Virus record (IMG/VR): IMGVR_UViG_3300011008_000022
DNA: 64,000 nt
Strand: one strand, 5' to 3'
Source of the DNA: a virus
Below the pieces are notes generated by a model. It made no database searches and was not told the origin of the DNA. It saw only the letters and a program-made list of their open reading frames with translations. The position numbers and the translations under genes are program-made. How positions within the stretch are numbered: position 1 is the stretch's first letter; every line of letters starts with the position of its first letter. Shown here in pieces: positions 2,776 through 59,117 of the stretch.

Positions 2776-4611
2776 ATGGCAAAAAAGACTTCTGCTCCCG
2801 TCACCCGCGTAAAGGCCAGCAACTTCATAAAAAAGGCTGCTGACCTGCATCGCCGTAACTACTCGGTACTCCTGCCAGGCGACCGCTCTTACTATAATTT
2901 GGATGGCCCCAGCAGCGATATTTCTTGGGGCGACTTCATCGGCTCACAGCTTCGTGCCGGTGCAACCGAAAATGGTAAGTCTCAGCGTAAGTCTATACCT
3001 ACGCTCTATTTCTCGTCAGGAAACGAAAGCCAACAGGGAGCTGAGAAGATTGGTACGCCTAACTTGGGATGGATAGAATGGGGCTATGGCAACAACCTGC
3101 CTAACATCGTGGCATTGCTCACACACATGCTGCCATATACGGCTGCCGGTCTTAAATTCAACACGGATCTCTGTGCTGGACTCGGACCTCAGCCGATGTA
3201 CGACTGTACGCAGTATGTGGGTGGTAACATCACACAGAAACTCATCCGCTATAAGGATGCAGGACAATGGCTGCGCGGACGTATCATCGACCTGCAGACA
3301 CAGCTGCTGAACCTCGAACAGAAAAACACCACTCCCGATGATTCATCATCGGGCGAAGGCATGGGTGCTGCTGTTGGCTCTGTAACAGGACGTGGCGCGA
3401 AAAAGTCTGAGGTGTACGATGCACTTGTGGATTCTATCAACGAACAGATAAAGGAATTACAAGAGGCACATAAGGTATGGAAGACTACAGATGAGGAGGT
3501 ACAGAAGTTCCTCGATAATAATAATATCGCTCAGACATGGCTTTCGCTGGTGCTCGATCAGGAACTGTTTGGTATCTCGTTCCCAGAACTGTTGCTGAAC
3601 CAGCAAGACCTCGACGAGAATGGAAACCCTGTCAAAACGAAGACTTGGACTCCTCGCGTGACGGGTATCGCCCACCGTTCATGCCATACGACCCGCATGG
3701 AGCGTATGGATGAAATGGGTAAGATTAACTTCGTGTACTGCTCTACAAGATGGCTTGATAAATACTTCATCGAACAGGGTGGAGAGAATAACGCGCCTAT
3801 CAATGCTATACCTGCCCTCCATGTGCCCTCTCCTCTTGCTTCACTGGAGGAGAAGGTACGTGAGGCTCGCCAGAAAAATGTATCTGTCAACAACAGACCG
3901 ACGCACTTTGTTTTGCCGACGGTCTATCCTACCGCTGGTCGCCCATATTACCCGACTCCTGCCTGGTACTCTATCTTTGGTGGTGATATCTACGAATACA
4001 TCACAACGATATTCTCAGACCGCCTCTCTCGTAAGCGTAACAGCAATGTCATCGGACGTGTCATCTATCTGCATAACGATTACATGCAGCAGTTGTTTGT
4101 GGCCAAAAAAGCACAGGCTGATGCTAACAAACAGGCTGAGATACGCGACAAACTCTATACGCAGATCAACCAGTGGCTCGCCAATCGCAACAATGCCGGA
4201 CAGTCATTGCTGGCTTTCACATTCATGGGCACGGATGGTAAGGAGCATAAGAGCTTCGAGATTGTAGAGATCGAAAGCAACAATAAGGATGTGGTGGCAG
4301 CCAACGAGAAAGAGACGGCTGAACTGTCATCAGTGGTATTCATGGCTCTGGGTCTTGATGGTCGTCTGCTGGGTTCTTCGCCGCTGTCTCTCGTAGGTAG
4401 CAACGGTGGTACTGACATCCGCGAACGCTTCCTGCTTCGCTTGATCCTGAAATCACCGCAAATCAACATCATGCTTAAACCGCTGGAAGTGCTCTCTCGC
4501 TTCAACAAGTGGGACCGCCACCTGGTATGGCAGGTGCAAAAGCAGGCAATGACAACACTTGACCGCTCTAAATCGGGCGTGACAACACAATCTGACGACG
4601 AAGGTAAATAG
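2776..4611 (+). CDS. hypothetical large protein (virion-module context; portal-sized but unverified)
   Basis: 611-aa ORF behind the TATCTTTG box at 2707-2714. Carries an in-frame hairpin at 3334-3353 (TPDDSSSGEG). Confidence 0.7.
   Translation: MAKKTSAPVTRVKASNFIKKAADLHRRNYSVLLPGDRSYYNLDGPSSDISWGDFIGSQLRAGATENGKSQRKSIPTLYFSSGNESQQGAEKIGTPNLGWIEWGYGNNLPNIVALLTHMLPYTAAGLKFNTDLCAGLGPQPMYDCTQYVGGNITQKLIRYKDAGQWLRGRIIDLQTQLLNLEQKNTTPDDSSSGEGMGAAVGSVTGRGAKKSEVYDALVDSINEQIKELQEAHKVWKTTDEEVQKFLDNNNIAQTWLSLVLDQELFGISFPELLLNQQDLDENGNPVKTKTWTPRVTGIAHRSCHTTRMERMDEMGKINFVYCSTRWLDKYFIEQGGENNAPINAIPALHVPSPLASLEEKVREARQKNVSVNNRPTHFVLPTVYPTAGRPYYPTPAWYSIFGGDIYEYITTIFSDRLSRKRNSNVIGRVIYLHNDYMQQLFVAKKAQADANKQAEIRDKLYTQINQWLANRNNAGQSLLAFTFMGTDGKEHKSFEIVEIESNNKDVVAANEKETAELSSVVFMALGLDGRLLGSSPLSLVGSNGGTDIRERFLLRLILKSPQINIMLKPLEVLSRFNKWDRHLVWQVQKQAMTTLDRSKSGVTTQSDDEGK
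3334..3353 (+). repeat. family-A-type hairpin in-frame inside CDS 2776..4611
   Basis: actCCCGATGATtcATCATCGGGcgaagg, encoding TPDDSSSGEG. Confidence 0.7.
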
Positions 4612-4619
4612 TTCTGTAT

Positions 4620-4638
4620 GTCGCTATGTCATAGCGAC
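4620..4638 (+). terminator. family-B hairpin
   Basis: gttctgtatGTCGCTATGtCATAGCGAC, after the stop at 4611. Confidence 0.6.
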
Positions 4639-4658
4639 CTCAAAATAAAAGAAAAGAT

Positions 4659-5696: not shown

Positions 5697-5705
5697 CCAC
5701 CAATC

Positions 5706-5723
5706 CCAGCCGTTCTCGGCTGG
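5706..5723 (+). terminator. family-A hairpin
   Basis: CCAGCCGttctCGGCTGG, after the stop at 5696. Confidence 0.6.
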
Positions 5724-5758
5724 ACCTCGAAAAGAAACAACATAATAATAAAATAAAA

Positions 5759-6268: not shown

Positions 6269-6276
6269 TCACCGTG

Positions 6277-6296
6277 CCCAGCCGCTCTCGGCTGGG
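6277..6296 (+). terminator. family-A hairpin
   Basis: caccgtgCCCAGCCGctctCGGCTGGGtctc. Confidence 0.6.
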
Positions 6297-6312
6297 TCTC
6301 AATCTATAAGGT

Positions 6313-6880: not shown

Positions 6881-7558
6881 ATGGAAAAATTTAACTATCA
6901 ACAACCGTGCTGCATCGAGAGCACACTGCCACAGCTGCTGAAGAAATACGACTGGCTGCCATTCCAGACAAGTGGCGATGTGACAGTAGAGAAAATCCTG
7001 AAGGCTGTAAGCTACCTCGCTGGCAACAACCTCGACATCACTATCTGCCTGCCGGCTATCGACGTAACAATCCTGCGCCTATTCGCTTGGTACCATAGAC
7101 GTGGATGGCTGAAAGCGTTTACCGTCTTAACGGCAACAGACCAAAGCGAACTGATCCGTAACGAATTGCCAAAGGAACTGCCACTAACCATCGTGGATAG
7201 TGCCGACATCCCCGAAAACTATGGTATGTTGGTCATCAAAGGTGAACTGAGCAATGTCATCGTCAATGGTCCGATCTTCTCAGTCGTCACACCAGGCATC
7301 TGTTCCTATACGGCATACTATGGCAAAGACCCAGAGCGTATCGCTCAACTGACCGACACCATCAATGCCCGCATCCGCGTCGCTGATGCCAAAAAGAAAA
7401 GGGCTGCAAGGAAAACAACCCCAAAGAAAAAAGGCACCACCACTCCCGCCTCCGAAGCTCCTGCTCCCGCTGATGGTTCCACTGTGCTCGGCGATTCTGT
7501 CGTCGAGGAAAAAGACTCCACCTCTCCCGCTGCTTCTCCAGCGGGCACTGATGAATAA
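6881..7558 (+). CDS. hypothetical protein with K/P/A/T-rich low-complexity tail
   Basis: 225-aa ORF. In-frame hairpin at 7526-7545 (SPAASPAGT). Confidence 0.65.
   Translation: MEKFNYQQPCCIESTLPQLLKKYDWLPFQTSGDVTVEKILKAVSYLAGNNLDITICLPAIDVTILRLFAWYHRRGWLKAFTVLTATDQSELIRNELPKELPLTIVDSADIPENYGMLVIKGELSNVIVNGPIFSVVTPGICSYTAYYGKDPERIAQLTDTINARIRVADAKKKRAARKTTPKKKGTTTPASEAPAPADGSTVLGDSVVEEKDSTSPAASPAGTDE
7526..7545 (+). repeat. hairpin in-frame inside CDS 6881..7558
   Basis: CCCGCTGcttctcCAGCGGG, encoding SPAASPAGT. Confidence 0.6.
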
Positions 7559-8245: not shown

Positions 8246-8286
8246 ATTCTAAAAGTATTAAGTGAAAAATGTTTCGTCTATTGTTC

Positions 8287-8395
8287 GGCGATTGCATCGC
8301 CGCTTTTCGTTCTGTGCCCAGCGCTTTTCCGCTGGTCCTGTATGTCGCTATGTCATAGCGACCTTAGCCATCGTGCCCAGCCGTTCTCGGCTGGG
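8287..8395 (+). repeat. stack of four hairpins (C, A, B, A) between two minus-strand genes
   Basis: GGCGATtgcATCGCC (8287-8301), CCAGCGcttttcCGCTGG (8317-8336), GTCGCTATGtCATAGCGAC (8344-8362), CCCAGCCGttctCGGCTGGG (8376-8395). All have plus-strand polarity. Confidence 0.7.
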
Positions 8396-8397
8396 TC

Positions 8398-8712
8398 TTA
8401 TCCATAGATCTTCGTCCCGTCTATATCCACAATCAGGAAGTCCCACACATACCTGATAGCCCCAGAGTCCACAAACTGCACCCTGCGCAAATGCTTACGA
8501 CGGTCAACATCCAACGAAATCACCATGCCGCTCTCCAGTCGCCCGCTCTTCGTCACAAAACGGACGAAAAACGGCACTCTGGCCAACTTCTGTACGCCAG
8601 GAGGGGGATTGTACCCTACAGTCATCAGTCCCGTGCGTTTATCCTGCCACGTCCACTTCTCTGCGAACATGCGCACCTTCTGCCAGTGCTCACTTGGTTG
8701 TCTTTTTGGCAT
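8398..8712 (-). CDS. hypothetical protein
   Basis: ORF track gives 8398..8742. The ATG at 8712 (MPKRQPSEHW) lies 27 nt downstream of a minus-strand TATCTTTG box (8740-8747). Confidence 0.55.
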   Translation of the reverse strand: MPKRQPSEHWQKVRMFAEKWTWQDKRTGLMTVGYNPPPGVQKLARVPFFVRFVTKSGRLESGMVISLDVDRRKHLRRVQFVDSGAIRYVWDFLIVDIDGTKIYG

Positions 8713-8893: not shown

Positions 8894-9220
8894 ATGACCT
8901 CAAAATTAGACCTTAATCGTGCTTTTAGTGAGCACGGAGTTACTTCTAAGACCGTTGCAGAGCGCATCGGACTGACACCACAGACCATCAGCGCTTATGT
9001 CAACGGCAACCCCACCGTCAAGAGCCTCTATCAGATAGCAGATGCACTTGAATGTGATGTGCGCGACCTGTTCTATCCCGTCGAGGATGCCACAGAGGAA
9101 ACCACCACTCCCGATGCCTCTCCATCGGGCACAAACGGCCCTCGTGCCTCTGCTCTGATTACATGTCCGCATTGCGGCACAGTCCTCTCAGCATCCCTTT
9201 CGGTCTTCAACAAATCATAA
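8894..9220 (+). CDS. XRE-family helix-turn-helix regulator
   Basis: N-terminal HTH (KTVAERIGLTPQTISAYVNGNPTVKSLYQIADAL). Divergent from 8398..8712, with operator-like repeats between them. In-frame hairpin at 9110-9129. Confidence 0.65.
   Translation: MTSKLDLNRAFSEHGVTSKTVAERIGLTPQTISAYVNGNPTVKSLYQIADALECDVRDLFYPVEDATEETTTPDASPSGTNGPRASALITCPHCGTVLSASLSVFNKS
9110..9129 (+). repeat. hairpin in-frame inside CDS 8894..9220
   Basis: actCCCGATGcctctcCATCGGGc, encoding TPDASPSGT. Confidence 0.7.
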
Positions 9221-11103: not shown

Positions 11104-11177
11104 ATCAAATTTTAATCTAAAATTTTTAGAAACATTTAGTAAACAACATTAAGTTTAACCCAGCGATGCCACCGCAG

Positions 11178-11236
11178 CCCCACCGAACTCATCGGTGGGG
11201 TTTTTGTTTCGTCATTTGCAAGGCGATTGTATCGCC
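11178..11236 (+). terminator. GC hairpin + T-run, then family-C hairpin
   Basis: CCCCACCGAactcaTCGGTGGGGttttt gtttcgtcatttgcaa GGCGATtgtATCGCC. Confidence 0.6.
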
Positions 11237-17282: not shown

Positions 17283-17291
17283 CCCACCGTG

Positions 17292-17311
17292 CCCAGCCTT
17301 TCTCGGCTGGG
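17292..17311 (+). terminator. family-A hairpin
   Basis: caccgtgCCCAGCCtttctcGGCTGGGtcc, after the stop at 17282. Confidence 0.6.
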
Positions 17312-17353
17312 TCCCTCTTTTCATTCATTCATCAATTCATCAAATCATTAACC

Positions 17354-19588: not shown

Positions 19589-19599
19589 CCCCTACCCGC

Positions 19600-19659
19600 C
19601 CCCACTGGTTCCCCCAGTGGGGTGCTCTGTTTCGTTTATTGTCAGGCGATTTTATCGCC
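19600..19659 (+). terminator. GC hairpin, then family-C hairpin
   Basis: CCCCACTGGttcccCCAGTGGGG ... gtttcgtttattgtca GGCGATtttATCGCC. Confidence 0.6.
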
Positions 19660-22299: not shown

Positions 22300-23934
22300 A
22301 TGACACATTCAGATTATATCAACGCCGTTGGCCGCGCCAACTACTACTCCCACATGTACTATGTCGCATCCGCTCCCGTTGTGAGCGATGCCGAGTTTGA
22401 TGCCCTCGTCGCTCAGATCGAGCAGTACGAACGCCTCAATCCCTCACACATTCTCCCAGACAGTCCCACCCAGCAGGTAGGCTCCGACCTCAATGGCAAT
22501 GGCCGTATCGTCCACCGCACCCCTATGCTCTCCTGTCAGAAGGCTCAGGACATCCAGAAGGTTGCTTCGTGGATCAACAAGACCAACCAGCGCATGAACG
22601 CCCTCACCGGCGACAACCACACTGGCGGTTACAAGCTCGTAGCCATGTGGAAGTACGACGGCATTTCTTGCTCTCTCGTCTATCAGGATGGCCAACTCAT
22701 CAGCGCTGCCACTCGTGGCGATGGTAGGGTAGGGCAGGACATCACCGCCCACGCCCTCTGCATCCCCTCCATCCCTCAGCAGCTCCGCGAGACGGGTGCC
22801 ACCTACTCCCTCGCCGGTCGTATTGAGGTCCGTGGCGAAATCGTCTGCAGCAAGCGCAACCTCCACCTACTTTCCACTCGTTACACCGATTGCCGCACAG
22901 CAGCTTCCGCTCTCTGCAACCAGTCAGTGCCCGACGCTATCGATCTCGCCATGCTCGACTTCATCCCCTGGGATGCCTATATCGACGACGCTATCAGCAG
23001 TCAGATTCAGTTCTCTTGCACCCCGCTCGGCTACCCCTGGCATAAGTTCGACTTCCTCCATCGCCTTTGCTTCATCCACCGTCCTGACGTATGGACCGCC
23101 CACACTCTCGACGATGTTCAGCAGCTGCTGGCGAAGCGTGAGGCAGAACGTGCCGCTTTCGACTTCCCCGTTGATGGTATCGTCCTCCGCATCATGCACG
23201 ATGACTATTTCCGCGCCCTGGGTGCCACCGCACACCATCCTCATGGCTCTATCGCCTACAAGTTCGCACCCGCTAAGGCCATCACCACATGCCGCCGTAT
23301 AGAGGTGACTGTAGGTAAGACTGGCAAGCGCACCCCCGTCGCTTACTTCGACTTTGTGACCCTCCTCGACCGCGAAGTACATTCCGCCTCCCTCTATTCA
23401 GAGAAGACAGCCAACGACCTCGGCATCTATCCAGGTGCCACCATCGAGGTAGGTCTGTCAAACGACATCACCCCAAAGGTCTTTCGCGTTATAGCCACTG
23501 CCGGCGCTTCTGTTTCCTCCGTAGGCGATGGCTCTGCCGTCGCTCCTTCCCAGCCGCTCTCGGCTGGGGTAGGGGACAATGTTACGGAAAATAACCCCTT
23601 ATCTCCCGCCTCTGACGAAGCTCCCGCCGATTGTCCCGTATGTGGCGACACTATTGCCACCGATGACGAAGAGGAAGAAGTCTGGCTCGCCCCCTCTCTC
23701 TTCTCCGACGAAGCTCCCGCCACCGCTGCCCCTGTCGCCTCTGACAAAGAAGCCGCTCCTACCACAGCGCTCGGTGGTTCTCCCACCGATGAACCCGCCA
23801 CCCCTCACCATAGCACCACCGCCGCAGTTCTCGCCACTGTCGCCTGTGCTGCAGTCCTCTGTTGCTTTGGTGCAGTAGTCCTGGGTGCTGCCGTCTTCTG
23901 TCTGCCCCTCATAGCCGGCACCCTCCGCGTATAG
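22300..23934 (+). CDS. ligA: NAD-dependent-type DNA ligase (adenylation + OB core) with atypical low-complexity and hydrophobic C-terminus
   Basis: KxDG adenylation motif (MWKYDGISCSLVYQDGQL), ATRGDGRVGQDIT, and a CPVCG zinc-finger remnant. In-frame hairpin at 23549-23568. The last ~40 aa are hydrophobic (AAVLATVACAAVLCCFGAVVLGAAVFCLPLIAG). Confidence 0.7.
   Translation: MTHSDYINAVGRANYYSHMYYVASAPVVSDAEFDALVAQIEQYERLNPSHILPDSPTQQVGSDLNGNGRIVHRTPMLSCQKAQDIQKVASWINKTNQRMNALTGDNHTGGYKLVAMWKYDGISCSLVYQDGQLISAATRGDGRVGQDITAHALCIPSIPQQLRETGATYSLAGRIEVRGEIVCSKRNLHLLSTRYTDCRTAASALCNQSVPDAIDLAMLDFIPWDAYIDDAISSQIQFSCTPLGYPWHKFDFLHRLCFIHRPDVWTAHTLDDVQQLLAKREAERAAFDFPVDGIVLRIMHDDYFRALGATAHHPHGSIAYKFAPAKAITTCRRIEVTVGKTGKRTPVAYFDFVTLLDREVHSASLYSEKTANDLGIYPGATIEVGLSNDITPKVFRVIATAGASVSSVGDGSAVAPSQPLSAGVGDNVTENNPLSPASDEAPADCPVCGDTIATDDEEEEVWLAPSLFSDEAPATAAPVASDKEAAPTTALGGSPTDEPATPHHSTTAAVLATVACAAVLCCFGAVVLGAAVFCLPLIAGTLRV
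23549..23568 (+). repeat. family-A hairpin in-frame inside the ligase CDS
   Basis: CCCAGCCGctctCGGCTGGG, encoding PSQPLSAGVG. Confidence 0.75.
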
Positions 23935-28172: not shown

Positions 28173-28180
28173 TAACCGTT

Positions 28181-34880: not shown

Positions 34881-34897
34881 TCCTTTTCGTTCTGTAT

Positions 34898-34916
34898 GTG
34901 GCTATGTCATAGCCAC
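34898..34916 (+). repeat. family-B variant hairpin
   Basis: gttctgtatGTGGCTATGtCATAGCCAC. Confidence 0.65.
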
Positions 34917-38652: not shown

Positions 38653-38669
38653 CTGTCTTCGTTAGTGTG

Positions 38670-38689
38670 CCCAGCCGTTCTCGGCTGGG
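38670..38689 (+). repeat. family-A hairpin between two minus-strand genes
   Basis: gtgtgCCCAGCCGttctCGGCTGGGtctc. Confidence 0.65.
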
Positions 38690-38712
38690 TCTCTACACCT
38701 TATTATTATATA

Positions 38713-39248: not shown

Positions 39249-40148
39249 ATGATGTCTAAAATCAAACATTACTACCAGTGCGACATGTATAGCACCATCG
39301 GCAAGCAGCTCCAAAAATATTGGGACAGCATTATCCGTGCCGCATCCCGTGCCGATGACTATGCCCGTAAGTATGGCGCTTCCAGCTACGAAGCCCCAGT
39401 ACAATACTTCGAGGGTGGGGTAGATTACCTCATTTTCGACCACACTCCCGACCTCAAAGTGTGGCGTAAGAAAATTACGGATGCCGAGGGTACCGACCTC
39501 TACGAACCTAACTGCATGTATCGTTCTGATGTGCTCGTCATGCCTGATGACCGCTTCCATCCCTCCGACACATGGGATAAGACATACTCCAAGGAACACC
39601 TCGCCTGGAAGGATGCCAAACAGCTGAAGACCTTTGACCAGTGGGCTGCCATTGCCAAACTGAAACGGACTGATGACCGTGAGGCCGACATGAAGGCGCT
39701 CGATCAACTGATGTCTCGCTATACATTCGTCACCTTCCTCCATTTCTATGGCGACGAAGCCACCACCGTGCCTGATGCTTCTCCATCGGGTAGCCGTTTC
39801 CCGCAGGGACGTGCCGCCGGTCGCACAGCAGCTGCTCGTGCTCGTGCTGCTGCCAGTGGCAAGAATGCTCCCGACTGCCCTCAATGGCTCCGCAAAGCCA
39901 TCCGTGCCGAGAAAGACCGTCAGGCGCTTCCCGTTGTCGAGATCTATCCGCTCATGGCGATGCTTGATATGCGTCCATCCACCACAGGTCGCAGCGTCAC
40001 GCTCAATGTTACGCCGCAGTTCTTCCTTTATGGAGAGACATTTTTCATCGGTACTGAGTACCCATGCCATGCAGAGGGATTGCACCCCACCACAGAGGGC
40101 AATTTCATCTGCAACATGAATGCCGCCAAACGTCAGCGCAACAATTAG
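39249..40148 (+). CDS. hypothetical protein
   Basis: 299-aa ORF behind the TAACTTTG box (39172-39179). In-frame hairpin at 39771-39790 within an A/R-rich linker. Confidence 0.65.
   Translation: MMSKIKHYYQCDMYSTIGKQLQKYWDSIIRAASRADDYARKYGASSYEAPVQYFEGGVDYLIFDHTPDLKVWRKKITDAEGTDLYEPNCMYRSDVLVMPDDRFHPSDTWDKTYSKEHLAWKDAKQLKTFDQWAAIAKLKRTDDREADMKALDQLMSRYTFVTFLHFYGDEATTVPDASPSGSRFPQGRAAGRTAAARARAAASGKNAPDCPQWLRKAIRAEKDRQALPVVEIYPLMAMLDMRPSTTGRSVTLNVTPQFFLYGETFFIGTEYPCHAEGLHPTTEGNFICNMNAAKRQRNN
39771..39790 (+). repeat. hairpin in-frame inside CDS 39249..40148
   Basis: caccgtgCCTGATGcttctcCATCGGGt, encoding TVPDASPSGS. Confidence 0.7.
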
Positions 40149-40327: not shown

Positions 40328-41113
40328 CTACGTCTCTTCTGGCCCGTCGTCTGCAGCTATTCCTGACATGAACGAACCACGCTGGCTCCGTTGGTAGAAC
40401 TTCGTCAACTCGGCATTCTGCCGCTCAATGATATCCATTAGCCGATTGCGCTCCGCATCAAATCCTGCTTGACAGTCTCGCCTGATGTGGTCCTCGCGCT
40501 CATGGTGCTCACGCTCCAGTTTGATAATCTCCTTTGTGTGCTCCAACCGCAATCGCAGTATAGTTTCACTCTCACACTCCCCACCGACTGCCTCAATGGG
40601 TCTGTCCGTGTGCACAGTGGTTTCCCCACTGGGAATGTTGCCACCACTCCCAGCCGTTTTCGGCTGGGTAATATCCCGTTCCTTTGCCGCCGCTTCCTCC
40701 TCGGCATCGCGCATCTTCAATAACTGTTCTTTGCGTTCCAGTCCAGCCGTCACCGCTGCTGCCTGTGCCCTGCTGCTCACCTGGCGCTCCCTAACCTGTG
40801 TCTCGATGATACTCTTTCCGGCACCATTGCCGATGCCGTAACCGTCCGTTGGCATGGTCTGACTGTCTTCAGTGGGTCTTTCGATAGTCAGCGTACTCTT
40901 ACCGTCACCGTCGAAGAAGAAACCGCTTATCGGTATGTTATAGTAGTTACACAACCTTAGCATAGCCGTGACATGGATGGGGGTCTTCCCGTCAAGCCAA
41001 CGGTTAATGCCAGTATAATCTGAACTCCCTAACGCCTCTAACAGGTCTTTCTTCGATAACTTGTTGGCCTCTTTGAACTCTCGCAGAAAACCATAATTGA
41101 AACTGTAGTCCAT
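40328..41113 (-). CDS. CI-like repressor (N-terminal XRE HTH)
   Basis: HTH: KLSKKDLLEALGSSDYTGINRWLDGKTPIHVTAMLRLCNYYNI. Divergent from 41320. In-frame hairpin at 40649-40668 (ITQPKTAGSGG). Confidence 0.6.
   Translation of the reverse strand: MDYSFNYGFLREFKEANKLSKKDLLEALGSSDYTGINRWLDGKTPIHVTAMLRLCNYYNIPISGFFFDGDGKSTLTIERPTEDSQTMPTDGYGIGNGAGKSIIETQVRERQVSSRAQAAAVTAGLERKEQLLKMRDAEEEAAAKERDITQPKTAGSGGNIPSGETTVHTDRPIEAVGGECESETILRLRLEHTKEIIKLEREHHEREDHIRRDCQAGFDAERNRLMDIIERQNAELTKFYQRSQRGSFMSGIAADDGPEET
40649..40668 (+). repeat. family-A hairpin in-frame inside the minus-strand repressor CDS
   Basis: CCCAGCCGttttCGGCTGGG. Read in antisense it encodes ITQPKTAGSGG. Confidence 0.75.
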
Positions 41114-41790: not shown

Positions 41791-42179
41791 TGAGACAGCC
41801 ATGTCGAAGAAAACCAGGAAGACCGCTGAAAGACCGTCGCAGACATCTTCTTATAGCGGCTACAACAGACTTTCGAGGACCCGATGAAGACCAACTCTTC
41901 TTCCTCTTTCGCGGTGCCTCGCATCGTCTGCTATCTGATGTGTTCCGTTTTCTCATCGGCAATGGTAATGGTATCGCTCGTCAGGTGGTCATCACCGAAG
42001 AGCACGACACCATCAAACGTAATGGTAAGGGGTATTGGCGCATGGCAGTGAAACTCTGTGAACCAAACTACCACTTCTGCAGCCTGGAAGATATGCGCAT
42101 ACTCATCGATGCAGCGTTCCATCGTCATCATCCCTGCTCAGTCCATTGGCTCACCATTGATAAGTTCCTAAACGTATAG
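41790..42179 (+). CDS. hypothetical protein
   Basis: 129-aa ORF with a TAATG overlap with the previous gene. The N-terminus is uncertain. Confidence 0.4.
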   Translation: MRQPCRRKPGRPLKDRRRHLLIAATTDFRGPDEDQLFFLFRGASHRLLSDVFRFLIGNGNGIARQVVITEEHDTIKRNGKGYWRMAVKLCEPNYHFCSLEDMRILIDAAFHRHHPCSVHWLTIDKFLNV

Positions 42180-42186
42180 CAACCGT

Positions 42187-42206
42187 CCCAGCCGTTCTCG
42201 GCTGGG
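42187..42206 (+). terminator. family-A hairpin
   Basis: CCCAGCCGttctCGGCTGGG, after the stop at 42179. Confidence 0.6.
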
Positions 42207-42222
42207 TACTAAAAGCAAAAAT

Positions 42223-46538: not shown

Positions 46539-46547
46539 GTCCCTGTG

Positions 46548-46567
46548 TCCAGCCGTTCTCGGCTGGG
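46548..46567 (+). terminator. family-A hairpin
   Basis: gtgTCCAGCCGttctCGGCTGGGtctc. Confidence 0.6.
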
Positions 46568-46621
46568 TCTCACTAAGGAAACAACGTAATAACAATAAAA
46601 AATTAACTTAAAAGTAAAATT

Positions 46622-47221: not shown

Positions 47222-47229
47222 CCCCTGTG

Positions 47230-47249
47230 CCCAGCCGTTCTCGGCTGGG
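47230..47249 (+). terminator. family-A hairpin
   Basis: ctgtgCCCAGCCGttctCGGCTGGGtcc. Confidence 0.6.
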
Positions 47250-47269
47250 TCCCTAAAAAAGCATTAACA

Positions 47270-48855: not shown

Positions 48856-49271
48856 TGGATAATATGTATAACTGTGATTTTATCGCAAAGTCACTTGTTG
48901 CTGATGAGGGCTGTGCCACCAACTGTCCTGGTGTTACTCACCGTATAGAGGTGGCCTGCTTCTTCCGGCATGGCCGCACATCCTATTTCATTGCGAAAGA
49001 TGGCCGTGTCCTATCAGCTCCTACAGCCACCGTGCTCGATGGTTCTCCATCGAGTCCTGGCGCTCTCTGTAAGGAGATAGCATCTTTCAACGGCAAGGGC
49101 TATCGCCGTGTCCGTCTCGCTGGTAAGAACTTTAAGGTGCATCGCCTCGTGGCAGAAGCCTTTGTCCCTAACCCAGACAACCTTCCCCACGTCATCCATA
49201 TCGATGGCAACCGCACCAATAATCATTTCTCTAACCTCAAATGGTCCGCCACCCAGTCTAACCGCGAATGA
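48855..49271 (+). CDS. HNH homing endonuclease (free-standing)
   Basis: VHRLVAEAFVPNPDNLPHVIHIDGNRTNNHFSNLKW (HNH_3-type). In-frame hairpin at 49035-49054. Confidence 0.7.
   Translation: MDNMYNCDFIAKSLVADEGCATNCPGVTHRIEVACFFRHGRTSYFIAKDGRVLSAPTATVLDGSPSSPGALCKEIASFNGKGYRRVRLAGKNFKVHRLVAEAFVPNPDNLPHVIHIDGNRTNNHFSNLKWSATQSNRE
49035..49054 (+). repeat. hairpin in-frame inside the HNH CDS
   Basis: caccgtgCTCGATGGttctCCATCGAGtcctgg, encoding TVLDGSPSSPG. Confidence 0.75.
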
Positions 49272-51072: not shown

Positions 51073-51095
51073 TATCATTCTTCCCCGTTCCGTCT

Positions 51096-51180
51096 GTCGC
51101 TATGCCATAGCGACATTCTCCACTACTCCCAGCCGTTCTCGGCTGGGTTTTTCTTTTCCTCCCAGCGCTTCTCCGCTGGG
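51096..51180 (+). terminator. stack of three hairpins (B, A, A)
   Basis: GTCGCTATGcCATAGCGAC (51096-51114), CCCAGCCGttctCGGCTGGG (51128-51147), CCCAGCGcttctcCGCTGGG (51161-51180). Confidence 0.65.
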
Positions 51181-51213
51181 TCTTTTTGTCCCGTCCTCGC
51201 TGCCGCTTCTTCG

Positions 51214-51221
51214 TATCTTTG
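51214..51221 (+). promoter_or_regulatory. -7 box TATCTTTG
   Basis: 15 nt upstream of ATG 51237, after three stacked hairpins. Confidence 0.5.
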
Positions 51222-51236
51222 TGCAAAATAAGAACA

Positions 51237-54700: not shown

Positions 54701-57563
54701 TGTCGATGACATGAGGGCTGCCGGAAAGTCTGTCGAAGATATCAATAAAGACCTGGCAAAGAAACTGGGTGTCGAAGGCAAGGTGGCTCGTGATGCTTAT
54801 AACCGCCGTTCTGATAAGACTTTGCGTACTACTTTCTTCGATCAAGAGAGTTATCGGGCACAGGCGCAATATGATATGGATGGTGGTTTTGCTGCCGCCA
54901 GAAATACGACCCGCGCCCTCACCCAAGCCGAACAGATGTTGTATGCCGCTACTCGTTATGCTACGCAGGCGTACTCCGCATCCAACGCCATGAACCGCGT
55001 CAATAAGAAGTGGAAGCCGTTTGAGGAGGACCTATCGACGGTCACTGATGAGACTCCTGGCACCCTCGACAACGATGCACCCGATAAGGAAGCCGAGAAG
55101 CGCCGCAAGGCTGAGGAAGCGGCTCGACGCAAGGCGCTCCGTGCGGAAATGAAGGAGGAACAGGCTAAGGCTCAGGCTATCGTCGATAATGTCAAGAACT
55201 ACTACGAGCGTCAGATTGCTGCCATTACGGAAATGGCTACAAAGACGGGCATGGATTCTGAACTCCAGAAGAAACTCGTCGATGGTATGACCGTCCGCAT
55301 GAATAATGCACTGGCTAATGTCCGTCAGGCTATCGCTGGCACTGAGAACGATTGGGCTGACTTCCGCCAGTCGATGATAAATGACCTCTACGAACCGCTG
55401 TCTGAGGATGGTACTAACCAGTCCACACAGTTGCTCGATAACATCATCCATAATGATATCGACAAACTGAAGGAAATGATTACGGTTCTCTCGAAAGAAC
55501 TGGGACAGAATGGCTCTGTGCTTCTCGATCAGATATGGCGTAAGGCTACTGAGAATGAACTGAAAAACGCTAACCAACAGAACAAGGCATACCAGGAGCG
55601 TCAGAGGGTGCTTCTGGAAAAGAACTATACGGGCAAGGTAAACCTCGACTACGAGAACCAGATGGAACAGTTTGGTGTCGCCGAACTGACCTCTGAACAG
55701 ATTGCTCAGATGATGGGGTGGTCGCAGAAGGGTAACAACGAGGCTATCCAACAGTTTCTCGATGACCGTACCGAACAGTGGCAAAAGGCGTTTGCATCGG
55801 CCCGTAAGAATGTCGTTGACCTGCTCTCTGTCGATGCCAACAGTGAGGATGCACCTGATAAGGTGCTCACTATCCTCTTCGGTAAGGATTACAAGTCTTA
55901 TCTCGCCGGCACGGGCCTCTCGTCACTGCTCGATATGTCTGCCGACCAGTTCAAGGTGTTCTACCAGAAACTCATCGAATACTCTGATGCCTATACTGAT
56001 GCTCAGAAGAAAGCCTACGACGAGGCAAAACGTCGGGCGGATTTCATCTTTAATAACAATCCTACCATTCAGAGTATCGACCAGTCAACACAACAGCTGT
56101 CAACCATCAACAGCGACCAGCAACGCTTCGAGTCTGATAAGAACATCGGACAGCAGATGGGTATGTCCTGGAACATCGATTCTGACCCCGAAATTCTGCG
56201 CTATCGCCTGCTGGCTGAACGTGCCCGTCTCTACTATGAGGATATGGCGCGTCTGCGTGAACAGGATAAGATCTCTGAACAGCAGCTGACGGATGCAAAG
56301 CGTCAGATGATGGAGGCTCAGTCTAACATGGCCGACCAGGTGGCTCGTAAGTTCCATGAGCGGGTGTCTCTGCTCCAGAACTTCTCCGAACCGCTGAACA
56401 CCTTTGCCGAAGGGGTAGGGGAGTCGCTGGGTAACATGATCTACGACACCGAACAGTCGGATGTCAAGATGAAAGACTTGCTGAAAGACATGCTGAAGTC
56501 GTATGTGAAGATGTCGCTGCAACTTATTGCCCAGGACCTCACACGCCGTGTCACTAAGCAACTCTACTACCGTCAGGAGGAAATGGATGAGACAATGCAC
56601 CAGCAGACCATGCTGCAAATACAGCAGCTCTACCAGTCGCTGATGTTGACAGCTCAGACTACTGGCGATGCAGCGCGTCTTACACAACACGCCACATCGA
56701 ATGCTACCGAACTGTCAGCAGAGGCGGGTGCTACCACTGGTAAGGTGGGCCTCGGTATTGCCGGTGGTGCAGCTAAGATCATCGGCACCCTGGGCTTCTG
56801 GGGTATTCCGCTGATTGGTGTGATTACGGCACTCTTGATGGGACTGCTCTCTTGGGCTATCGGATTGGCTTTCGGTGGCGATGACAGCGGTGCCAGTGCA
56901 TCGGATGCTACGCCTAACGTCAAACTCGCCACAGGTATGTTGACGTATGACAGCGGTAACGTGCAGAGTGTGGGCAACGGTTCTCCCGTTGCTTCTCCCT
57001 CCGGCTATGCGCCCTCCGCCTCTCCTGGTGGTAGTGGTGCGCCCGCTGGTGCTGCCGGCGGGGATAGAACGCCTGTCCTCGGTTCTGATGGCTATGTCTA
57101 TCAGGCTCGCCAGGTGCCACAACTGCAGACGGGTCTCGTCACGTCGCCTATCGCCACCATGGTCAACGGACAACCGTCACTGGTTGGCGAACGTGGCCCT
57201 GAAATGGTGATTGGACGCGAGACAACAGCAGCAATGCAGATGGCACGTCCCGACCTCCTCGCGGCTATCGTGAAGTTTGATAAGAACTACTCCAATGGCC
57301 ATGCCTATCGCACCTATGACGAAGGCAACCTCTCCGACTTCGCCACCGTGCCCGATGGATCTCCATCGGGTGAAGGCACTCTCACCAAAGAGGATATCGA
57401 CGGACTCCGTTCTACGCTCTCCGAGTTTACAGCGGTCATGCTGGCTATCAAGCGCAACGGCCTCCATGTCAACAAGTACGGACGTGGTGGCATCGCTCAG
57501 GAGTCGCAGGATGGCGCTAATTTCATGCGTCGTAACTCCGGCGACCGTCTCTGGAAAGGTTAG
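51774..57563 (+). CDS. tape-measure-like protein (1929 aa)
   Basis: Long coiled coils, TP901-type core-like segment (DLADLAYQGGKMGFG..., TPELLALGSAADALGQAPEVAATAFGKLF), and hydrophobic blocks mid-protein and near the C-terminus. In-frame hairpin at 57351-57370. Confidence 0.7.
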   Translation: MADKQIYIKISADSAQPVAAVKAMRNELSRLQKAYDAINTSTATGAQRAQKLQKEMADLRALIKQQEADMNKVSKVITNLSNASLSQLNQALRQVKKEISRTSESSPKLEELRQKYKAITDQIKVMNGEMINIKKHMGELSTQTDSWLQRAINQQKQLVESTQKTSSAYQGQVNILHQLQNEQARRAVSTISDGGASADALRTARANLVSYRDQLGKGGILPASGNVATEIERINAELKKCDDQLDAIAGKEKQIELTTDQLQQKADNIILDPKKFSPKEIKAAIDEIQKKLNNLGTNDTARKKLNEQMKQLKNILDGVDHELVNIGDLLKPGNLRKAPLETLQKAAKQLENEMAKLNRDQQQYIDKQKQLAAIRGEIERTTGAINRQGSAWKTTFRNISMYFGVFQLFSIAQQKLQGMLQSNLAYSDQLADIRKVTGLATKEVNELSDSLATLNTRSTVQDLADLAYQGGKMGFGKYGVEGMSAFVRAADQVKVALSDDLGDDSLLQISKLVDTMGLIPKLGVERSMLAVGSSINQLSATSTASGTHIVDFAKRLTGLSRITGITTPELLALGSAADALGQAPEVAATAFGKLFTSLQTNHNLIEQQLNMEKGTINNLFSQGKAMEAILQIMEKMREKGNMNALGNIWKDLGSEGQRLIGVMATMSKNVDTVRAHVEESNVAFEEATSLTNEYALKQDTANAILEKGNNLWAKAFTNPEGVDMVKQMAQAWYDLSKSMTSNEASMWIMKNLLGLIAAELKILLALLPAILTGLLFKGASVAIIGLASSIGLMGKNAVLATLQTKGLVAAWHALNTAQKMNVIGLCISLLTGLAIAIASVIKKGNEATTWMQGFNSTMSDFNREFAIADDRLKRFKKAIDDAATGSRQRAAAIRNFNKEYGQYLSKMLTEKSTADDIAKAYKEVVKQLRAKIALQMKEKDITSQVAPRVGWSADRLTEYDNVAGGSAYNGTWLKAYVDDMRAAGKSVEDINKDLAKKLGVEGKVARDAYNRRSDKTLRTTFFDQESYRAQAQYDMDGGFAAARNTTRALTQAEQMLYAATRYATQAYSASNAMNRVNKKWKPFEEDLSTVTDETPGTLDNDAPDKEAEKRRKAEEAARRKALRAEMKEEQAKAQAIVDNVKNYYERQIAAITEMATKTGMDSELQKKLVDGMTVRMNNALANVRQAIAGTENDWADFRQSMINDLYEPLSEDGTNQSTQLLDNIIHNDIDKLKEMITVLSKELGQNGSVLLDQIWRKATENELKNANQQNKAYQERQRVLLEKNYTGKVNLDYENQMEQFGVAELTSEQIAQMMGWSQKGNNEAIQQFLDDRTEQWQKAFASARKNVVDLLSVDANSEDAPDKVLTILFGKDYKSYLAGTGLSSLLDMSADQFKVFYQKLIEYSDAYTDAQKKAYDEAKRRADFIFNNNPTIQSIDQSTQQLSTINSDQQRFESDKNIGQQMGMSWNIDSDPEILRYRLLAERARLYYEDMARLREQDKISEQQLTDAKRQMMEAQSNMADQVARKFHERVSLLQNFSEPLNTFAEGVGESLGNMIYDTEQSDVKMKDLLKDMLKSYVKMSLQLIAQDLTRRVTKQLYYRQEEMDETMHQQTMLQIQQLYQSLMLTAQTTGDAARLTQHATSNATELSAEAGATTGKVGLGIAGGAAKIIGTLGFWGIPLIGVITALLMGLLSWAIGLAFGGDDSGASASDATPNVKLATGMLTYDSGNVQSVGNGSPVASPSGYAPSASPGGSGAPAGAAGGDRTPVLGSDGYVYQARQVPQLQTGLVTSPIATMVNGQPSLVGERGPEMVIGRETTAAMQMARPDLLAAIVKFDKNYSNGHAYRTYDEGNLSDFATVPDGSPSGEGTLTKEDIDGLRSTLSEFTAVMLAIKRNGLHVNKYGRGGIAQESQDGANFMRRNSGDRLWKG
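57351..57370 (+). repeat. hairpin in-frame inside the tape-measure CDS
   Basis: caccgtgCCCGATGGAtcTCCATCGGGtgaagg, encoding TVPDGSPSGEG. A decayed copy may lie at 56985-57004 (SPVASPSG). Confidence 0.75.
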
Positions 57564-57571: not shown

Positions 57572-57591
57572 CCCAGCAGTTTTCGGCTGGG
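57572..57591 (+). terminator. family-A hairpin
   Basis: caccgtgCCCAGCAGttttCGGCTGGGttc. Confidence 0.55.
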
Positions 57592-57636
57592 TTCTCATAA
57601 ATTCATAAATTCATTAAATTATCAATTCATCAAATT

Positions 57637-57900
57637 ATGGAAGAAAAACTTTTCGCTCGTATCGTGGCGCTCCTCACCGCCCACTTCGACAACATGCCTG
57701 CAGCCGAGGACATCCACCTCGACGACAATCTGCATGAAGACCTCAATCTCGATTCTATCGACATTGTGGACTTCATTATGATGTGTGAAACGAACTTCAA
57801 CATTAAACTCGACATGACAGATGCGAAGAACACGCACACCCTGCGCGACCTCATCCGTTCTATCATCGAAGTAAAGCCCAGCCTATGCGACGCACAGTAA
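57637..57900 (+). CDS. acyl carrier protein
   Basis: 87 aa with the phosphopantetheine-attachment motif EDLNLDSIDIVDFIMMCE. Confidence 0.75.
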   Translation: MEEKLFARIVALLTAHFDNMPAAEDIHLDDNLHEDLNLDSIDIVDFIMMCETNFNIKLDMTDAKNTHTLRDLIRSIIEVKPSLCDAQ

Positions 57901-59117
57901 TCACGGGCATGGGCATCTGGTCCTGCATCGGTCAGTCCGTTCAGGAGGTGGCTCAGTCTCTCCGTCTTGGAAAGAGTGGCATCGGCATCGATCCTGAGCG
58001 TACCGCCTACGGCTACCAATCACCCCTTACCGGCATCGTGCCGCGTCCCGACATCAAGGCTCAGGGATTGCGACGCTCTCAGCGCATCACACTCTCCGAA
58101 CCTGGTGAATATGGCTACATGGCCATGAAAGAGGCGCTGACGATGGCTCCTGTCAGCGACCTCTATCGCTGTGGCCTTATCGTCAGCAATGACAGCACTG
58201 CTGGCGCTCTCGCTGAGACAGAGGCTATCATGGCGGAATACCATGACAGCCGACGACTGGGTGCCGGCATGGTGTTCCGCACCCTCAATAGCTCGGTATC
58301 TATGTCGCTGGCTTCCATCTTTGGCATCGGTGGCCTCACACTCTCCGTCTCTGCTGCCTGTGCCGGTGGTGGCCACGCTATCGGTCTCGCTCATTCGCTC
58401 ATTCAGTCCGGCCAACTGGACTGCTGCATTGTGGTAGGCGCTCAGGAGGTAGGACTACATGCCTATACATCCTTTGATGCACTCGGTCTCTTCAGCAAGC
58501 GTACCGACAACCCAGCAGCTGCCTCACGTCCGTTTGACACAGAGCGTGACGGCCTCGTGCCCTCTGGTGGCGCTGCCTGCGTTATCCTCGAAACAGCCGG
58601 ACATGCCGCTATGGGAAACAGAAAACCCTTGGCCATGGTCGATGGCTATGGCTTCTCCACCAGTCCCGATCTCGTTTCTCCCTCTTCCGATGCTATTTAC
58701 CAGTCCATGACCGCCGCCCTATCTGCCGCCACTGTGCCCAGCGGTTCTCCGCTGGGTCCTGGTATCTCCGCTATCATGGCTCACGCTACCTCCACGCCCG
58801 ATGGCGACCGTGCCGAGGCAGAAGCTATCCACCGCTTCTGTCTTGATAATGGTCTATCTCATCCTTTCGTCATCAGCACCAAGGCGCTCACAGGTCACGA
58901 GTGCTGGATGTCGGGTGTCTCTCAGATCGTCTATGCACTCATACAGATGCAAGGTGGTTTCATAGCACCAAACATCAACCTCCGCACCATCGACCCAGCA
59001 GCAGCTACGCTACGCATTCCAACAGCGCCAACCGTCACCACGCTAACCACCGTTCTCTGCAACGCCTTCGGTTTCGGTGGCACCAACAGTAGCCTGGTAA
59101 TCTCTCGCGCTGGCTAA
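57885..59117 (+). CDS. beta-ketoacyl-ACP synthase (FabF/FabB-type, Cys-His-His)
   Basis: RRTVITGMGIWS, active-site SAACAGGGHAI, AHATSTPDGD, TKALTGHECWMSG and NAFGFGGTNSSLVI. The start overlaps the ACP stop by 16 nt. In-frame hairpin at 58737-58756. Confidence 0.8.
   Translation: MRRTVITGMGIWSCIGQSVQEVAQSLRLGKSGIGIDPERTAYGYQSPLTGIVPRPDIKAQGLRRSQRITLSEPGEYGYMAMKEALTMAPVSDLYRCGLIVSNDSTAGALAETEAIMAEYHDSRRLGAGMVFRTLNSSVSMSLASIFGIGGLTLSVSAACAGGGHAIGLAHSLIQSGQLDCCIVVGAQEVGLHAYTSFDALGLFSKRTDNPAAASRPFDTERDGLVPSGGAACVILETAGHAAMGNRKPLAMVDGYGFSTSPDLVSPSSDAIYQSMTAALSAATVPSGSPLGPGISAIMAHATSTPDGDRAEAEAIHRFCLDNGLSHPFVISTKALTGHECWMSGVSQIVYALIQMQGGFIAPNINLRTIDPAAATLRIPTAPTVTTLTTVLCNAFGFGGTNSSLVISRAG
58737..58756 (+). 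repeat. family-A hairpin in-frame inside the ketoacyl-synthase CDS
   Basis: cactgtgCCCAGCGGttctCCGCTGGGtcctgg, encoding TVPSGSPLGPG, just before the AHATST histidine motif. Confidence 0.8.

Follow-up and report, generated by a model that had tools for sequence, protein, structure and literature searches.

Tagged hairpin repeats at gene ends and in frame within genes of an uncultivated phage lineage

The 64,000-nucleotide stretch of viral DNA analysed here (IMG/VR record IMGVR_UViG_3300011008_000022; hereafter the window) carries many copies of a short palindromic hairpin, termed F1, which is found mainly behind genes and also, in frame, inside them. The initial annotation of this DNA had compared the in-gene copies with the Rickettsia palindromic elements (RPEs), and that reading is essentially right, F1 being a phage-borne variant of the hairpin repeats represented by the RPEs and by the repetitive extragenic palindromes (REPs). 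The interpretation that we favour, with modest confidence, is that of a lineage-specific, REP/RPE-like family of tagged hairpins that sits at gene ends by default; inside genes its copies would be passengers, tolerated there and still able to fold, and not peptide motifs.

The F1 unit, 31–33 nt long, is composed of an 8-nt tag (CCACCGTG), an 8-bp stem and a TTCT loop, with the consensus (C)CACC(G/A)(T/C)(G/T)-CCCAGCCG-TTCT-CGGCTGGG-TCT. A weight-matrix scan of the window yielded 34 copies on the plus strand, with scores of 13–49, and none on the minus strand, where the best score was 7.7. A covariance model built from these copies and run on the window without filters added four more at E<0.02 (1434, 7479, 7594 and 23762) and about five weaker ones (11169, 19593, 21229, 23922 and 40605), mostly with loops of 5–7 nt, which brings the total to 38–43 copies in 64 kb. 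No independent minus-strand copy was found by this model, the best candidates being palindrome shadows (~10–16 bits) of plus-strand copies that score ~40 bits. Tandem units are arranged head to tail in a single orientation, with a spacing of exactly 33 nt in coding DNA and of 31–37 nt outside it. A chance origin of the hairpins is excluded: perfect hairpins of 7 bp or longer number 77 in the window and 18 ± 3.4 in shuffled sequences, and the F1 stems, which are 94% paired, show 36 double-sided changes, against 9.2 in shuffles, a number reached in 0 of 500. The predicted stability of the F1 hairpins as RNA is −16 to −20 kcal/mol.

Fifteen F1 copies are located inside ten genes (3334, 7487, 7526, 9110, 23549, 23770, 37359, 37392, 37425, 39771, 40613, 40649, 49035, 57351 and 58737; Table 1); of these, five are read in antisense, in two genes of the minus strand. 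The initial annotation had placed the hairpin in frame in at least eleven genes. All eleven of its coordinates do carry the hairpin and the peptides quoted for them are all correct, but they correspond to ten genes, because the copies at 37359 and 37392 share one; an eleventh gene (1482-2600) is entered in frame, at 1757, by a hairpin of a second family, F2. The coding status of the host open reading frames (ORFs) was assessed from the excess of substitutions at third codon positions relative to related genomes. This signal is present in the plus-strand genes 1482-2600, 2776-4611, 6881-7558, 8894-9220, 22300-23934, 39249-40148, 48783-49271 and 51774-57563, and in the minus-strand genes 37100-38197 and 40328-41113. 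The copy at 39771 is thus in-gene, as proposed, within 39249-40148, and the minus-strand ORF that overlaps it is not coding. The substitutions relative to relatives gave no coding signal for the ORFs around 8317/8376, 26635 and 59600, so that the hairpin copies there are intergenic. Three long ORFs that run across hairpin arrays (window positions 8262-8456, 38413-39090 and 59306-59800) are likewise non-coding and would be false gene calls; such ORFs are long because the hairpin units are free of stop codons in all frames, and ORF callers therefore run through the intergenic arrays. Pfam and PHROGs searches identified among the host genes an NAD ligase, a FabB-like ketoacyl synthase (KAS), an HNH nuclease, two helix-turn-helix (HTH) proteins and the tape measure protein. 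The in-gene copies lie in linkers or loops, for example after an HTH domain, after the OB fold of the ligase, before the HNH domain and at the C-terminus of the tape measure.

What is conserved in these copies is the nucleic-acid structure and not the peptide, as had been argued from the stems at the outset, because the stems covary, synonymous codons keep the pairing, and three sense frames as well as the antisense orientation are used. Frame 0 is the most frequent; frame 1 is found in the ligase (SQPLSAG) and frame 2 in an extra HNH-gene unit of one relative (loci compared with the window are given as L numbers; here L018). The frame-0 copies bear paired stem changes, CCCGATGG/CCATCGGG and CCCAGCGG/CCGCTGGG, that convert the consensus reading P-S-R-S-R-L-G into P-D-G-S-P-S-G or P-S-G-S-P-L-G, and the frame-1 and antisense copies retain the consensus stem. 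When the synonymous codons of each peptide were resampled according to the codon usage of the window, the probability of the observed pairing was 0.0006–0.05 per copy (0.28 for 39771), with a product of ~1e-14. Between relatives, residues change as base-paired couples: PAASPAG at 7526 corresponds to PDASPSG in L025, and LDGSPSS at 49035 to PAGSPAG. In L018 the HNH-gene site shows two compensatory pairs in addition to its extra 33-nt F1 unit. Over the ortholog groups there are 13 compensated pair changes, and single stem changes on the plus strand give G.T in 15 cases and A.C in 6; the commonest variant in 120 KAS clusters, P285S (CCC to TCC), leaves a U.G wobble. The initial annotation had gone further and regarded the structure as selected. 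Pairing is indeed maintained, but selection is unproven, because template-switch mutation at perfect stems yields compensatory changes and loop inversions in a single step (Monttinen and Loytynoja 2022, PMC8794818) and because an in-gene copy has decayed in a relative.

Gene ends, and not gene bodies, are the main habitat of the hairpin, in agreement with its first description as punctuation between genes. A family hairpin starts 5–11 nt after the stop codon in 15 of the 49 plus-strand genes, and exactly 9 nt after it in nine, since the 8-nt tag abuts the stop and the stem thus begins ~9 nt downstream. This distance would be roughly that of the downstream edge of a terminating ribosome, if ribosome footprints in general are a guide. 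The 8-nt tail contains on average 4.0 T in intergenic copies versus 2.0 in in-gene copies (P = 0.0007); at least five T are present in 8/27 intergenic copies, and no in-gene copy has a T tract. F1 copies rank top in a blind terminator scan of the window. Genes are repeatedly preceded by a Bacteroidota-type −7 box, CGTATCTTTG (TAnnTTTG), and the order hairpin, T tract, promoter box is repeated at 2609-2705, 28181-28241 and 51128-51221. A cassette shared by 28181-28245 and 51161-51225, hairpin-(C/T)TTTTTGTCCC-N17-19-TTCTTC(A/G)TATCTTTG, is also found in L031 and L037. A subset of the intergenic copies look like terminators, given the T tracts, the promoters that follow and the top rank in the blind scan.

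The −7 box marks at least ten plus-strand promoters in the window (2705, 8855, 12256, 16387, 21360, 24980, 28232, 39059, 41277 and 51212). In addition, a candidate non-coding RNA of ~210 nt was noted on the minus strand at 59255-59491, with a −7 box (TACCTTTGCACCA) at 59491-59479 and a putative end at a tagless F1 stem (59285-59266) followed by CUUUUUGAUUAG. Its predicted fold has an energy of −80.6 kcal/mol (z = −3.98), and it matches no Rfam family.

F1 is one of at least three sub-families that share a single architecture, consisting of an 8-nt tag, a G+C-rich stem of 8 bp and a pyrimidine-rich loop of 3–5 nt. The F2 consensus is GTTCYGTAT-GTCGCTAT-gtc-ATAGCGAC, and F2, F3 and a GCAGCGGC-type hairpin all have the tag-plus-stem layout and the plus orientation of F1. 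Composite arrays of F1 with other families occur at 8286-8398 and 59555-59622. A 12-bp perfect inverted repeat between genes at 11580-11610, AAAATACTAACC-ccgctca-GGTTAGTATTTT, is unrelated to these families.

The KAS copy is a true insertion, as had been supposed. The sequences of solved FabB structures align end to end with the phage KAS except for an 8–9 residue gap exactly at ATVPSGSPL, just upstream of the AHATST motif of the catalytic histidine, and homologues at 36–60% identity in a library of 1.8 billion proteins have a short loop at that point. The insert is present in 120/120 close clusters, and the alignment with FabB places it in what would be a surface loop; an AlphaFold2 model of the KAS from a shallow alignment had a pLDDT of 33. 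The same loop has received other hairpins: in some genomes there are 33 additional in-frame nucleotides beside the insert, an F2 hairpin (TCTGTAT-GTGGCGAT-ggt-ATCGCCAC, peptide SVCGDGIATPS), and in others 60 additional in-frame nucleotides that contain a third hairpin type (F3). The variants P0087 and P0072 have lost the KAS stop codon, and translation continues through the F1 unit behind it (...SPCPAPLRWAS...), which is a live case of a non-coding copy turned coding.

Presence/absence polymorphism among related genomes, which had been anticipated, takes the form of gains, losses and replacements. The 9110 copy is absent in L011 and L027, the 5705 site is empty in L011 and doubled in L014, the 59126 copy is absent in L010, the 38670 copy is replaced by F2/F3-type hairpins in L013, and the number of F1 tandem units differs among relatives. 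In L061, whose KAS is only 59–61% identical, a decayed in-frame F1 (peptide AAVPDGFPF; GCCGCCGTG-CCCGATGG-TTTC-CCATTTTG) is found at a different KAS site, so that in-gene copies arise independently and can decay. The syntenic relatives L062-L064 have neither an F1 copy nor any hairpin excess in 34.5 kb, despite identities of 73% for the L064 helicase and 57–60% for the L063 and L064 primases; the family is therefore a lineage-specific gain and not a core requirement of this phage group. At 28892-28911 (versus L003) and 59266-59285 (versus L010) the loop is flipped from TTCT to AGAA with identical stem and flanks, which is a signature of template switching or cruciform flipping. Neither a target-site duplication nor a fixed target was seen at in-gene sites among relatives. 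A fixed target such as TAA or TAG was considered and rejected, as the in-gene copies have no preceding TAR. Fusion of neighbouring genes at a punctuation hairpin was rejected as a general origin, since the KAS copy is inside a conserved domain and stop loss gives frame 2 (PPCPAVLGW) and not the dominant frame 0.

In the passenger interpretation, the element would normally sit behind genes, at their 3′ ends, on the strand where most genes lie, with the tag abutting the stop codon and the 9-nt spacing keeping the stem just outside the terminating ribosome, to judge from ribosome footprints. Copies with a U tract are predicted intrinsic terminators ahead of the next promoter, and the other intergenic copies would probably be inter-cistronic 3′ hairpins that attenuate transcription or stabilise the mRNA. 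Multiplication would be of the copy-and-paste type, adding units beside existing ones, probably as a result of template switching, or of ectopic conversion, at hairpins in replicating DNA. Copies would enter ORFs by insertion into a loop, as in the KAS, by 33-nt tandem expansion in linkers, or by loss of a stop codon with read-through, and only stop-free units with a length that is a multiple of three would survive there. The surviving frame would be mainly T-V-P-x-x-S-P-x-G, in which paired stem changes swap the Arg codons of the consensus for Asp, Gly, Pro or Ser. The data give a direct view of how regulatory DNA can give rise to short protein segments by these three routes, and hundreds of near-identical genomes are a natural experiment in which copies gained or lost, arrays grown in tandem, loops inverted and non-coding hairpins turned into protein sequence might all be traced.

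Four points weigh against this interpretation, the first of which is strand polarity. Over 238 copies, from 39 related loci and the window, there are only three exceptions to the plus orientation, all at two tagless sites orthologous to 28892 and 59266, where the minus strand carries the T tract and relatives with identical flanks differ only in a flipped loop. Every tagged copy is plus-oriented, including those at five sites in the minus-strand block (37351-37447, 38662, 40605-40671 and the F2 copies at 33815 and 34890). A perfect stem can fold whichever strand it is on, which allows one hairpin to serve genes of both directions; that tag and loop are nonetheless polar points to a strand-specific origin or a strand-specific reader, and plus orientation within and between minus-strand genes is not predicted by a purely gene-end role as RNA. 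Second, a U tract is present in only ~30% of the intergenic copies, and most are thus not canonical terminators. Third, variable sites across orthologs make up 11% of the loop, 14% of the stem and 23% of the tag (figures that detection bias may affect), and L061 retains the tag core (CCGTG or CAGTG) and pyrimidine loops on stems of different sequence; a loop at least as conserved as the stem and the persistence of tag and loop hint at sequence-specific recognition by some factor. Finally, the in-gene copies that are kept with compensatory changes across relatives ~10% diverged could be functional rather than passengers.

Polarity of this kind would be shared with a purely selfish REP- or MITE-like (miniature inverted-repeat transposable element) family, none of whose copies is functional, whose placement reflects tolerance only, and which is moved by a strand-specific enzyme acting on hairpins in single-stranded DNA; the single orientation recalls elements of the IS200/IS605 type, which target the lagging-strand template. 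We consider this origin unlikely, though deserving of attention. The enzyme could be a host REP-associated tyrosine transposase (RAYT) or IS200-type Y1 transposase, or the HNH endonuclease or a reverse transcriptase of the phage, and the HNH gene is missing from the examined segment (the dnaN-methylase interval) of the hairpin-free L064. A tag joined to a hairpin is the architecture of a REP, the expansion is lineage-specific, presence/absence differences, tandem gains and hot-spot insertions are those of a mobile element, and rare exact copies follow stop codons in metagenome-assembled genomes (MAGs) of Prevotella/Bacteroidaceae. Against it, Pfam and PHROGs scans of ~50 window ORFs and 34 non-window ORFs of related genomes revealed no Y1, HUH or other transposase, the in-gene sites lack target-site duplications or a fixed target, and several copies are built into terminator-promoter cassettes. 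The absence of a transposase is not decisive in either direction, as CGTC-type REPs are also without a known one; by what mechanism repeats of strict one-strand polarity spread, with no transposase in the scanned ORFs, is the question that this raises.

It is also conceivable, but in our view rather improbable, that the hairpins are strand-specific DNA signals that act on a single-stranded plus strand in the priming of lagging-strand synthesis in unidirectional or rolling-circle replication, or in nicking, recombination or packaging, and that they are selected everywhere, with the proteins accommodating them. Besides the orientation of tagged copies on one genome strand whatever the gene direction, such a role is favoured by the conserved loop and tag core beside varying stems, by the greater tolerance on the plus strand of G.T than of A.C, by the primase, helicase and sliding clamp that the phage itself encodes, and by the tag, which often has C(C/T)GT adjoining the hairpin and is reminiscent of the origin of phage G4, where primase start sites lie beside hairpins. 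GC skew is negative nearly throughout the window, minus-gene block included, but it is weak elsewhere (0 to −0.07 in non-window loci of relatives), so that skew leaves the case for a role in replication undecided. No copies are present, however, in syntenic relatives whose replication genes are homologous, so that the hairpins are not a core need of replication or packaging; moreover, the spacing is irregular, with gaps of 4–6 kb in long genes, copies cluster at stop codons, followed by T tracts and promoters, and an in-gene copy has decayed in L061.

Stated more generally, tag, hairpin and loop together might be a sequence- and strand-specific signal, read on the plus strand as single-stranded DNA or RNA by a phage or host factor and maintained even in coding DNA, or, equivalently, a new transposase-less, strand-specific mobile hairpin system in a virus. 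We hold this to be doubtful; if true, phage proteins such as the fatty-acid synthase, the ligase, the HNH nuclease and the tape measure would have no choice but to accommodate 11 codons set by the needs of base pairing.

A function of the in-gene hairpins as RNA, through ribosome pausing at domain boundaries, internal 3′ ends or binding of a phage protein, and kept by selection, would fit their location in linkers or loops, the pairing preserved by synonymous codons and their retention, with compensatory changes, in all sampled close relatives. It is made improbable by the absence of the 9110 copy in two relatives and the decayed L061 copy, by outgroup proteins that work without the inserts, by the lack of U tracts in in-gene copies, and by template switching, which can maintain stems without selection. 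Lastly, a peptide motif in which a flexible T-V-P-D-G-S-P-S-G linker spread by exon-like duplication and the hairpin is a by-product of its codons has in its favour the dominance of frame 0, the likeness of the peptides to flexible linkers and the recurrence of (A/T)T(V/T)P(D/S)xSPxG at more than 20 sites across the lineage, but most copies are intergenic, the consensus would read P-S-R-S-R-L-G, residues change as base-paired couples and unrelated hairpin families enter the same KAS loop, and the codon-shuffle and frame data refute this extremely improbable reading for practical purposes.

The carrier is an uncultivated phage of a lineage abundant in metagenomes, with genomes of 100–107 kb, about 100 of them complete, and a KAS gene that falls into more than 120 sequence clusters. 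It encodes a tape measure and a holin (a head protease is found in relatives) as well as many replication proteins (ParA, DnaN, an archaeo-eukaryotic primase (AEP) at 60683-61675 and a D5-like helicase). Megablast of 24 kb of the window against 50,697 phage records returned no match, and tblastn with the 1222-aa helicase gave at best ~20% identity, to a Polaribacter phage, which leaves no cultured relative for comparison. No Rfam family reached the gathering threshold in the window, including 59150-59700, and no tRNA was found there. The host is probably a member of the Bacteroidota of gut or rumen, probably Prevotella, to judge from the promoter motif, a BT4734-like primase domain and the rare exact hairpin copies in Prevotella/Bacteroidaceae MAGs. 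An abundant host REP family was considered and rejected: the exact 20-mer occurs once per genome in only ~6 such MAGs among 185,579 species genomes, with no further copies at those loci. Single exact 20-nt hairpins follow stop codons of chromosomal-looking genes in these MAGs at L043:3747, L044:1818 and L057:878, the last with a phage-type tag (TAG-CCACCGTTC), and L051:5724-5824 has three tandem variants, the exact 20-mer and two weaker ones.

Other features of the genomes were noted. The minus-strand block at 28956-38652 encodes a GNAT acetyltransferase, a radical-SAM-like protein, an N6/N4 DNA methylase and a protein of the PAPS (3′-phosphoadenosine 5′-phosphosulfate) reductase family, and could represent a module for DNA modification or accessory functions; within it AT skew reverses and GC skew does not. 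Directly after the tape measure gene, an acyl carrier protein (ACP) gene (PP-binding, 87 aa) overlaps the start of the FabB-like KAS gene (window positions 57637-59117), and the ACP-KAS pair is kept in relatives down to 47% identity (L061-L064). Outside the window, related genomes contain a diversity-generating retroelement (DGR), in L016 with its variable region (VR) at 1604-1729, template repeat (TR) at 2089-2214 and reverse transcriptase at 2581-3927, and also in L019. The TR/VR pair is 126 nt long, with 19/21 mismatches at template adenines, and the VR is the C-terminus of a 417-aa protein that adjoins a 448-aa reverse transcriptase. The DGR was rejected as the source of the hairpins, its VR being 110 nt from the nearest F1 copy, and at least 40 unrelated genes cannot be DGR targets.

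Table 1. Hairpin copies of the F1, F2, F3 and GCAGCGGC types in the window, with their genomic setting
Position	Strand	Feature	Remark
1434..1465	+	F1 abutting stop of gene 30-1433	covariance model
1749..1775	+	F2 in frame, gene 1482-2600	GTTCCGTAT-GCTGCGAT-act-ATCGCAGC; gene has coding signal
2601..2668	+	two tandem F1 after stop of 1482-2600, first with T tract, then promoter box 2705	
3326..3356	+	F1 in frame 0, TPDDSSSG, gene 2776-4611	coding signal confirmed
4612..4638	+	F2 abutting stop of 2776-4611, F1-like layout	TAG-TTCTGTAT-GTCGCTAT-gtc-ATAGCGAC
5697..5727	+	F1 abutting stop of 4659-5696	
6269..6299	+	F1 abutting stop of 5759-6268	
7479..7510	+	F1 variant CTCGGCGA-TTCTG-TCGTCGAG, in frame, gene 6881-7558	covariance model
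7518..7548	+	F1 in frame, SPAASPAG, gene 6881-7558, 32 nt before stop	compensatory C-G to A-T in L025
7594..7679	+	two intergenic F1 with T tracts, terminator-like	
8286..8398	+	intergenic array F3 (8286), F1 (8309), F2 (8336), F1 (8368)	
9102..9132	+	F1 in frame, TPDASPSG, after HTH domain of gene 8894-9220	absent in L011, L027
9769..9799	+	F1 variant abutting stop of 9241-9768, T tract	
11169..11203	+	F1-like hairpin, T tract	covariance model, weak
17284..17314	+	F1 abutting stop of 16452-17282	
19593..19624	+	F1-like hairpin after stop of 18080-19588	covariance model, weak
23541..23571	+	F1 in frame 1, SQPLSAG, NAD ligase gene 22300-23934, after OB fold	
23762..23793	+	F1 variant CTCGGTGG-TTCTC-CCACCGAT, in frame, ligase tail	covariance model
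28173..28245	+	terminator-promoter cassette: F1, CTTTTTTGTCCC, promoter box CATATCTTTG	
28884..28953	.	tagless F1 stem (28892-28911) and F3 (28937-28953), convergent junction, T-rich tail on minus strand	loop flipped in L003
33815..33841	+ orientation	F2, intergenic in minus-strand gene block	
34890..34916	+ orientation	F2, intergenic in minus-strand gene block	
37351..37447	+	three tandem F1 units, 33-nt period, antisense in minus-strand gene 37100-38197	
38662..38692	+ orientation	F1 between two minus-strand genes	
39763..39793	+	F1 in frame, TVPDASPSG, plus-strand gene 39249-40148	
40605..40671	+	two F1 units (40605-40636 weak, 40641-40671 consensus), antisense in minus-strand HTH repressor-like gene 40328-41113	
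42179..42209	+	F1 abutting stop of 41790-42179	
46540..46570	+	F1 abutting stop of 42870-46538	
47222..47252	+	F1 abutting stop of 46622-47221	
49027..49057	+	F1 in frame, TVLDGSPSS, HNH endonuclease gene 48783-49271	
51087..51225	+	terminator-promoter cassette: F2 (51096), tandem F1 (51128, 51161; 33-nt spacing), TCTTTTTGTCCC, box CGTATCTTTG	
57343..57373	+	F1 in frame, TVPDGSPSG, near C-terminus of tape measure gene 51774-57563	compensatory T-A to C-G in L010
57564..57594	+	F1 abutting stop of tape measure gene	
58729..58759	+	F1 in frame, TVPSGSPLG, FabB-like KAS 57885-59117, 8-9 aa insertion before catalytic His	
59118..59148	+	F1 abutting KAS stop; coding by read-through in P0087, P0072	absent in L010
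59258..59288	.	tagless F1 stem with CTTTTTGATTAG on minus strand, putative minus-strand terminator	loop flipped in L010
59555..59622	+	intergenic pair F2 (59563) and F1 (59600)	
62612..62642	+	F1 variant after stop of thyX-like gene 61683-62615	
1757, 2737, 4620, 8344, 23971, 26635, 28302, 33823, 34898, 51096, 59563	+	F2 positions	
8286, 28937, 35501		F3 (tattgtt-CGGCGAT-tgc-ATCGCCG)	
37852, 59415		GCAGCGGC-type hairpin	

Among known systems, F1 comes closest to the REPs, which are defined by a terminal unpaired GTAG or CGTC (variants TGTC, CCTC), an 8–9-bp stem and a loop of 4–5 nt within 20–40 nt (Di Nocera et al. 2013, PMC3733652). The short unpaired tag, the stem of 8 bp (9 with G.U) and the loop of 4 nt (5–7 in variants) are within the REP range, and F1 shares with REPs the existence of several families in one genome and a lineage-specific abundance. 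REPs are found downstream of ORFs, may abut or supply stop codons and are in some cases in frame inside ORFs, including ligase and polymerase genes (PMC3733652); F1 is likewise mostly downstream of ORFs, with a minority of copies in frame within them. The F1 tag CCACCGTG, in contrast, has a C-C/T-G-T-G core, with CCGTG, CTGTG or CCACT next to the stem in place of GTAG or CGTC, and a CGTC tag was seen only once, in the F2 copy at 51096. CGTC-type REPs, for which no transposase is known, open their stems with two A/T pairs and carry CCA as their tail (PMC3733652), whereas F1 stems start with CCC/GGG and the tail is TCT. REPs frequently form inverted dimers and reside in bacterial chromosomes, whereas F1 occurs as singletons or head-to-tail tandems in one orientation, in a phage. 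Since it lacks the REP tag, stem start, tail and dimers, F1 is the same kind of element and not a member of the REPs.

The analogy with RPEs is apt: RPE-4 and RPE-6 are CGTC-type REPs, and tagged REPs including these two occur in frame within bacterial ORFs (PMC3733652). As with RPEs, a palindromic repeat is found in frame in genes that remain functional, and the KAS copy is an insertion relative to homologues. The differences are that the F1 unit has 31–33 nt and a phage as its carrier, whereas RPEs reside in an intracellular bacterium. A classic RPE-1 is ~100–150 bp long, and to our knowledge neither strict single-strand polarity nor abutment of stop codons has been described for RPEs. Ordinary intrinsic terminators have in common with F1 a G+C-rich stem of 8–9 bp with a short loop directly after genes, and 8/27 intergenic F1 copies have the T tract as well; ~70% of the intergenic and all in-gene copies are without it, and near-identical sequence with a conserved tag is a feature of F1 and not of ordinary terminators. 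The TTCT to AGAA flips at 28892 and 59266, with their identical flanks, resemble template-switch hairpins (PMC8794818), which represent a mutational mechanism and not a family of elements, and which do not account for dispersal to new loci. The nearest phage analogue of the intergenic cassettes would seem to be the promoter/stem-loop elements (PeSLs) of T4-type phages, repeated cassettes of a terminator-like stem-loop and a promoter between genes, comparable to the hairpin, T tract and promoter found here, and proposed to mediate modular shuffling (PMC2839356, PMC4122927). As far as the parts of these accounts available to us go, PeSLs are intergenic only, with no in-frame intragenic copies noted, and differ from the F1 cassettes in element order, sequence and promoter type. 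In agreement with the initial annotation, no report of in-frame palindromic repeats in phage genes was found in the searchable literature, within a limited search. REP/RPE-like repeats inside genes, described so far for bacterial chromosomes, are thus found here in a virus, possibly for the first time in a phage and in an abundant uncultivated lineage.

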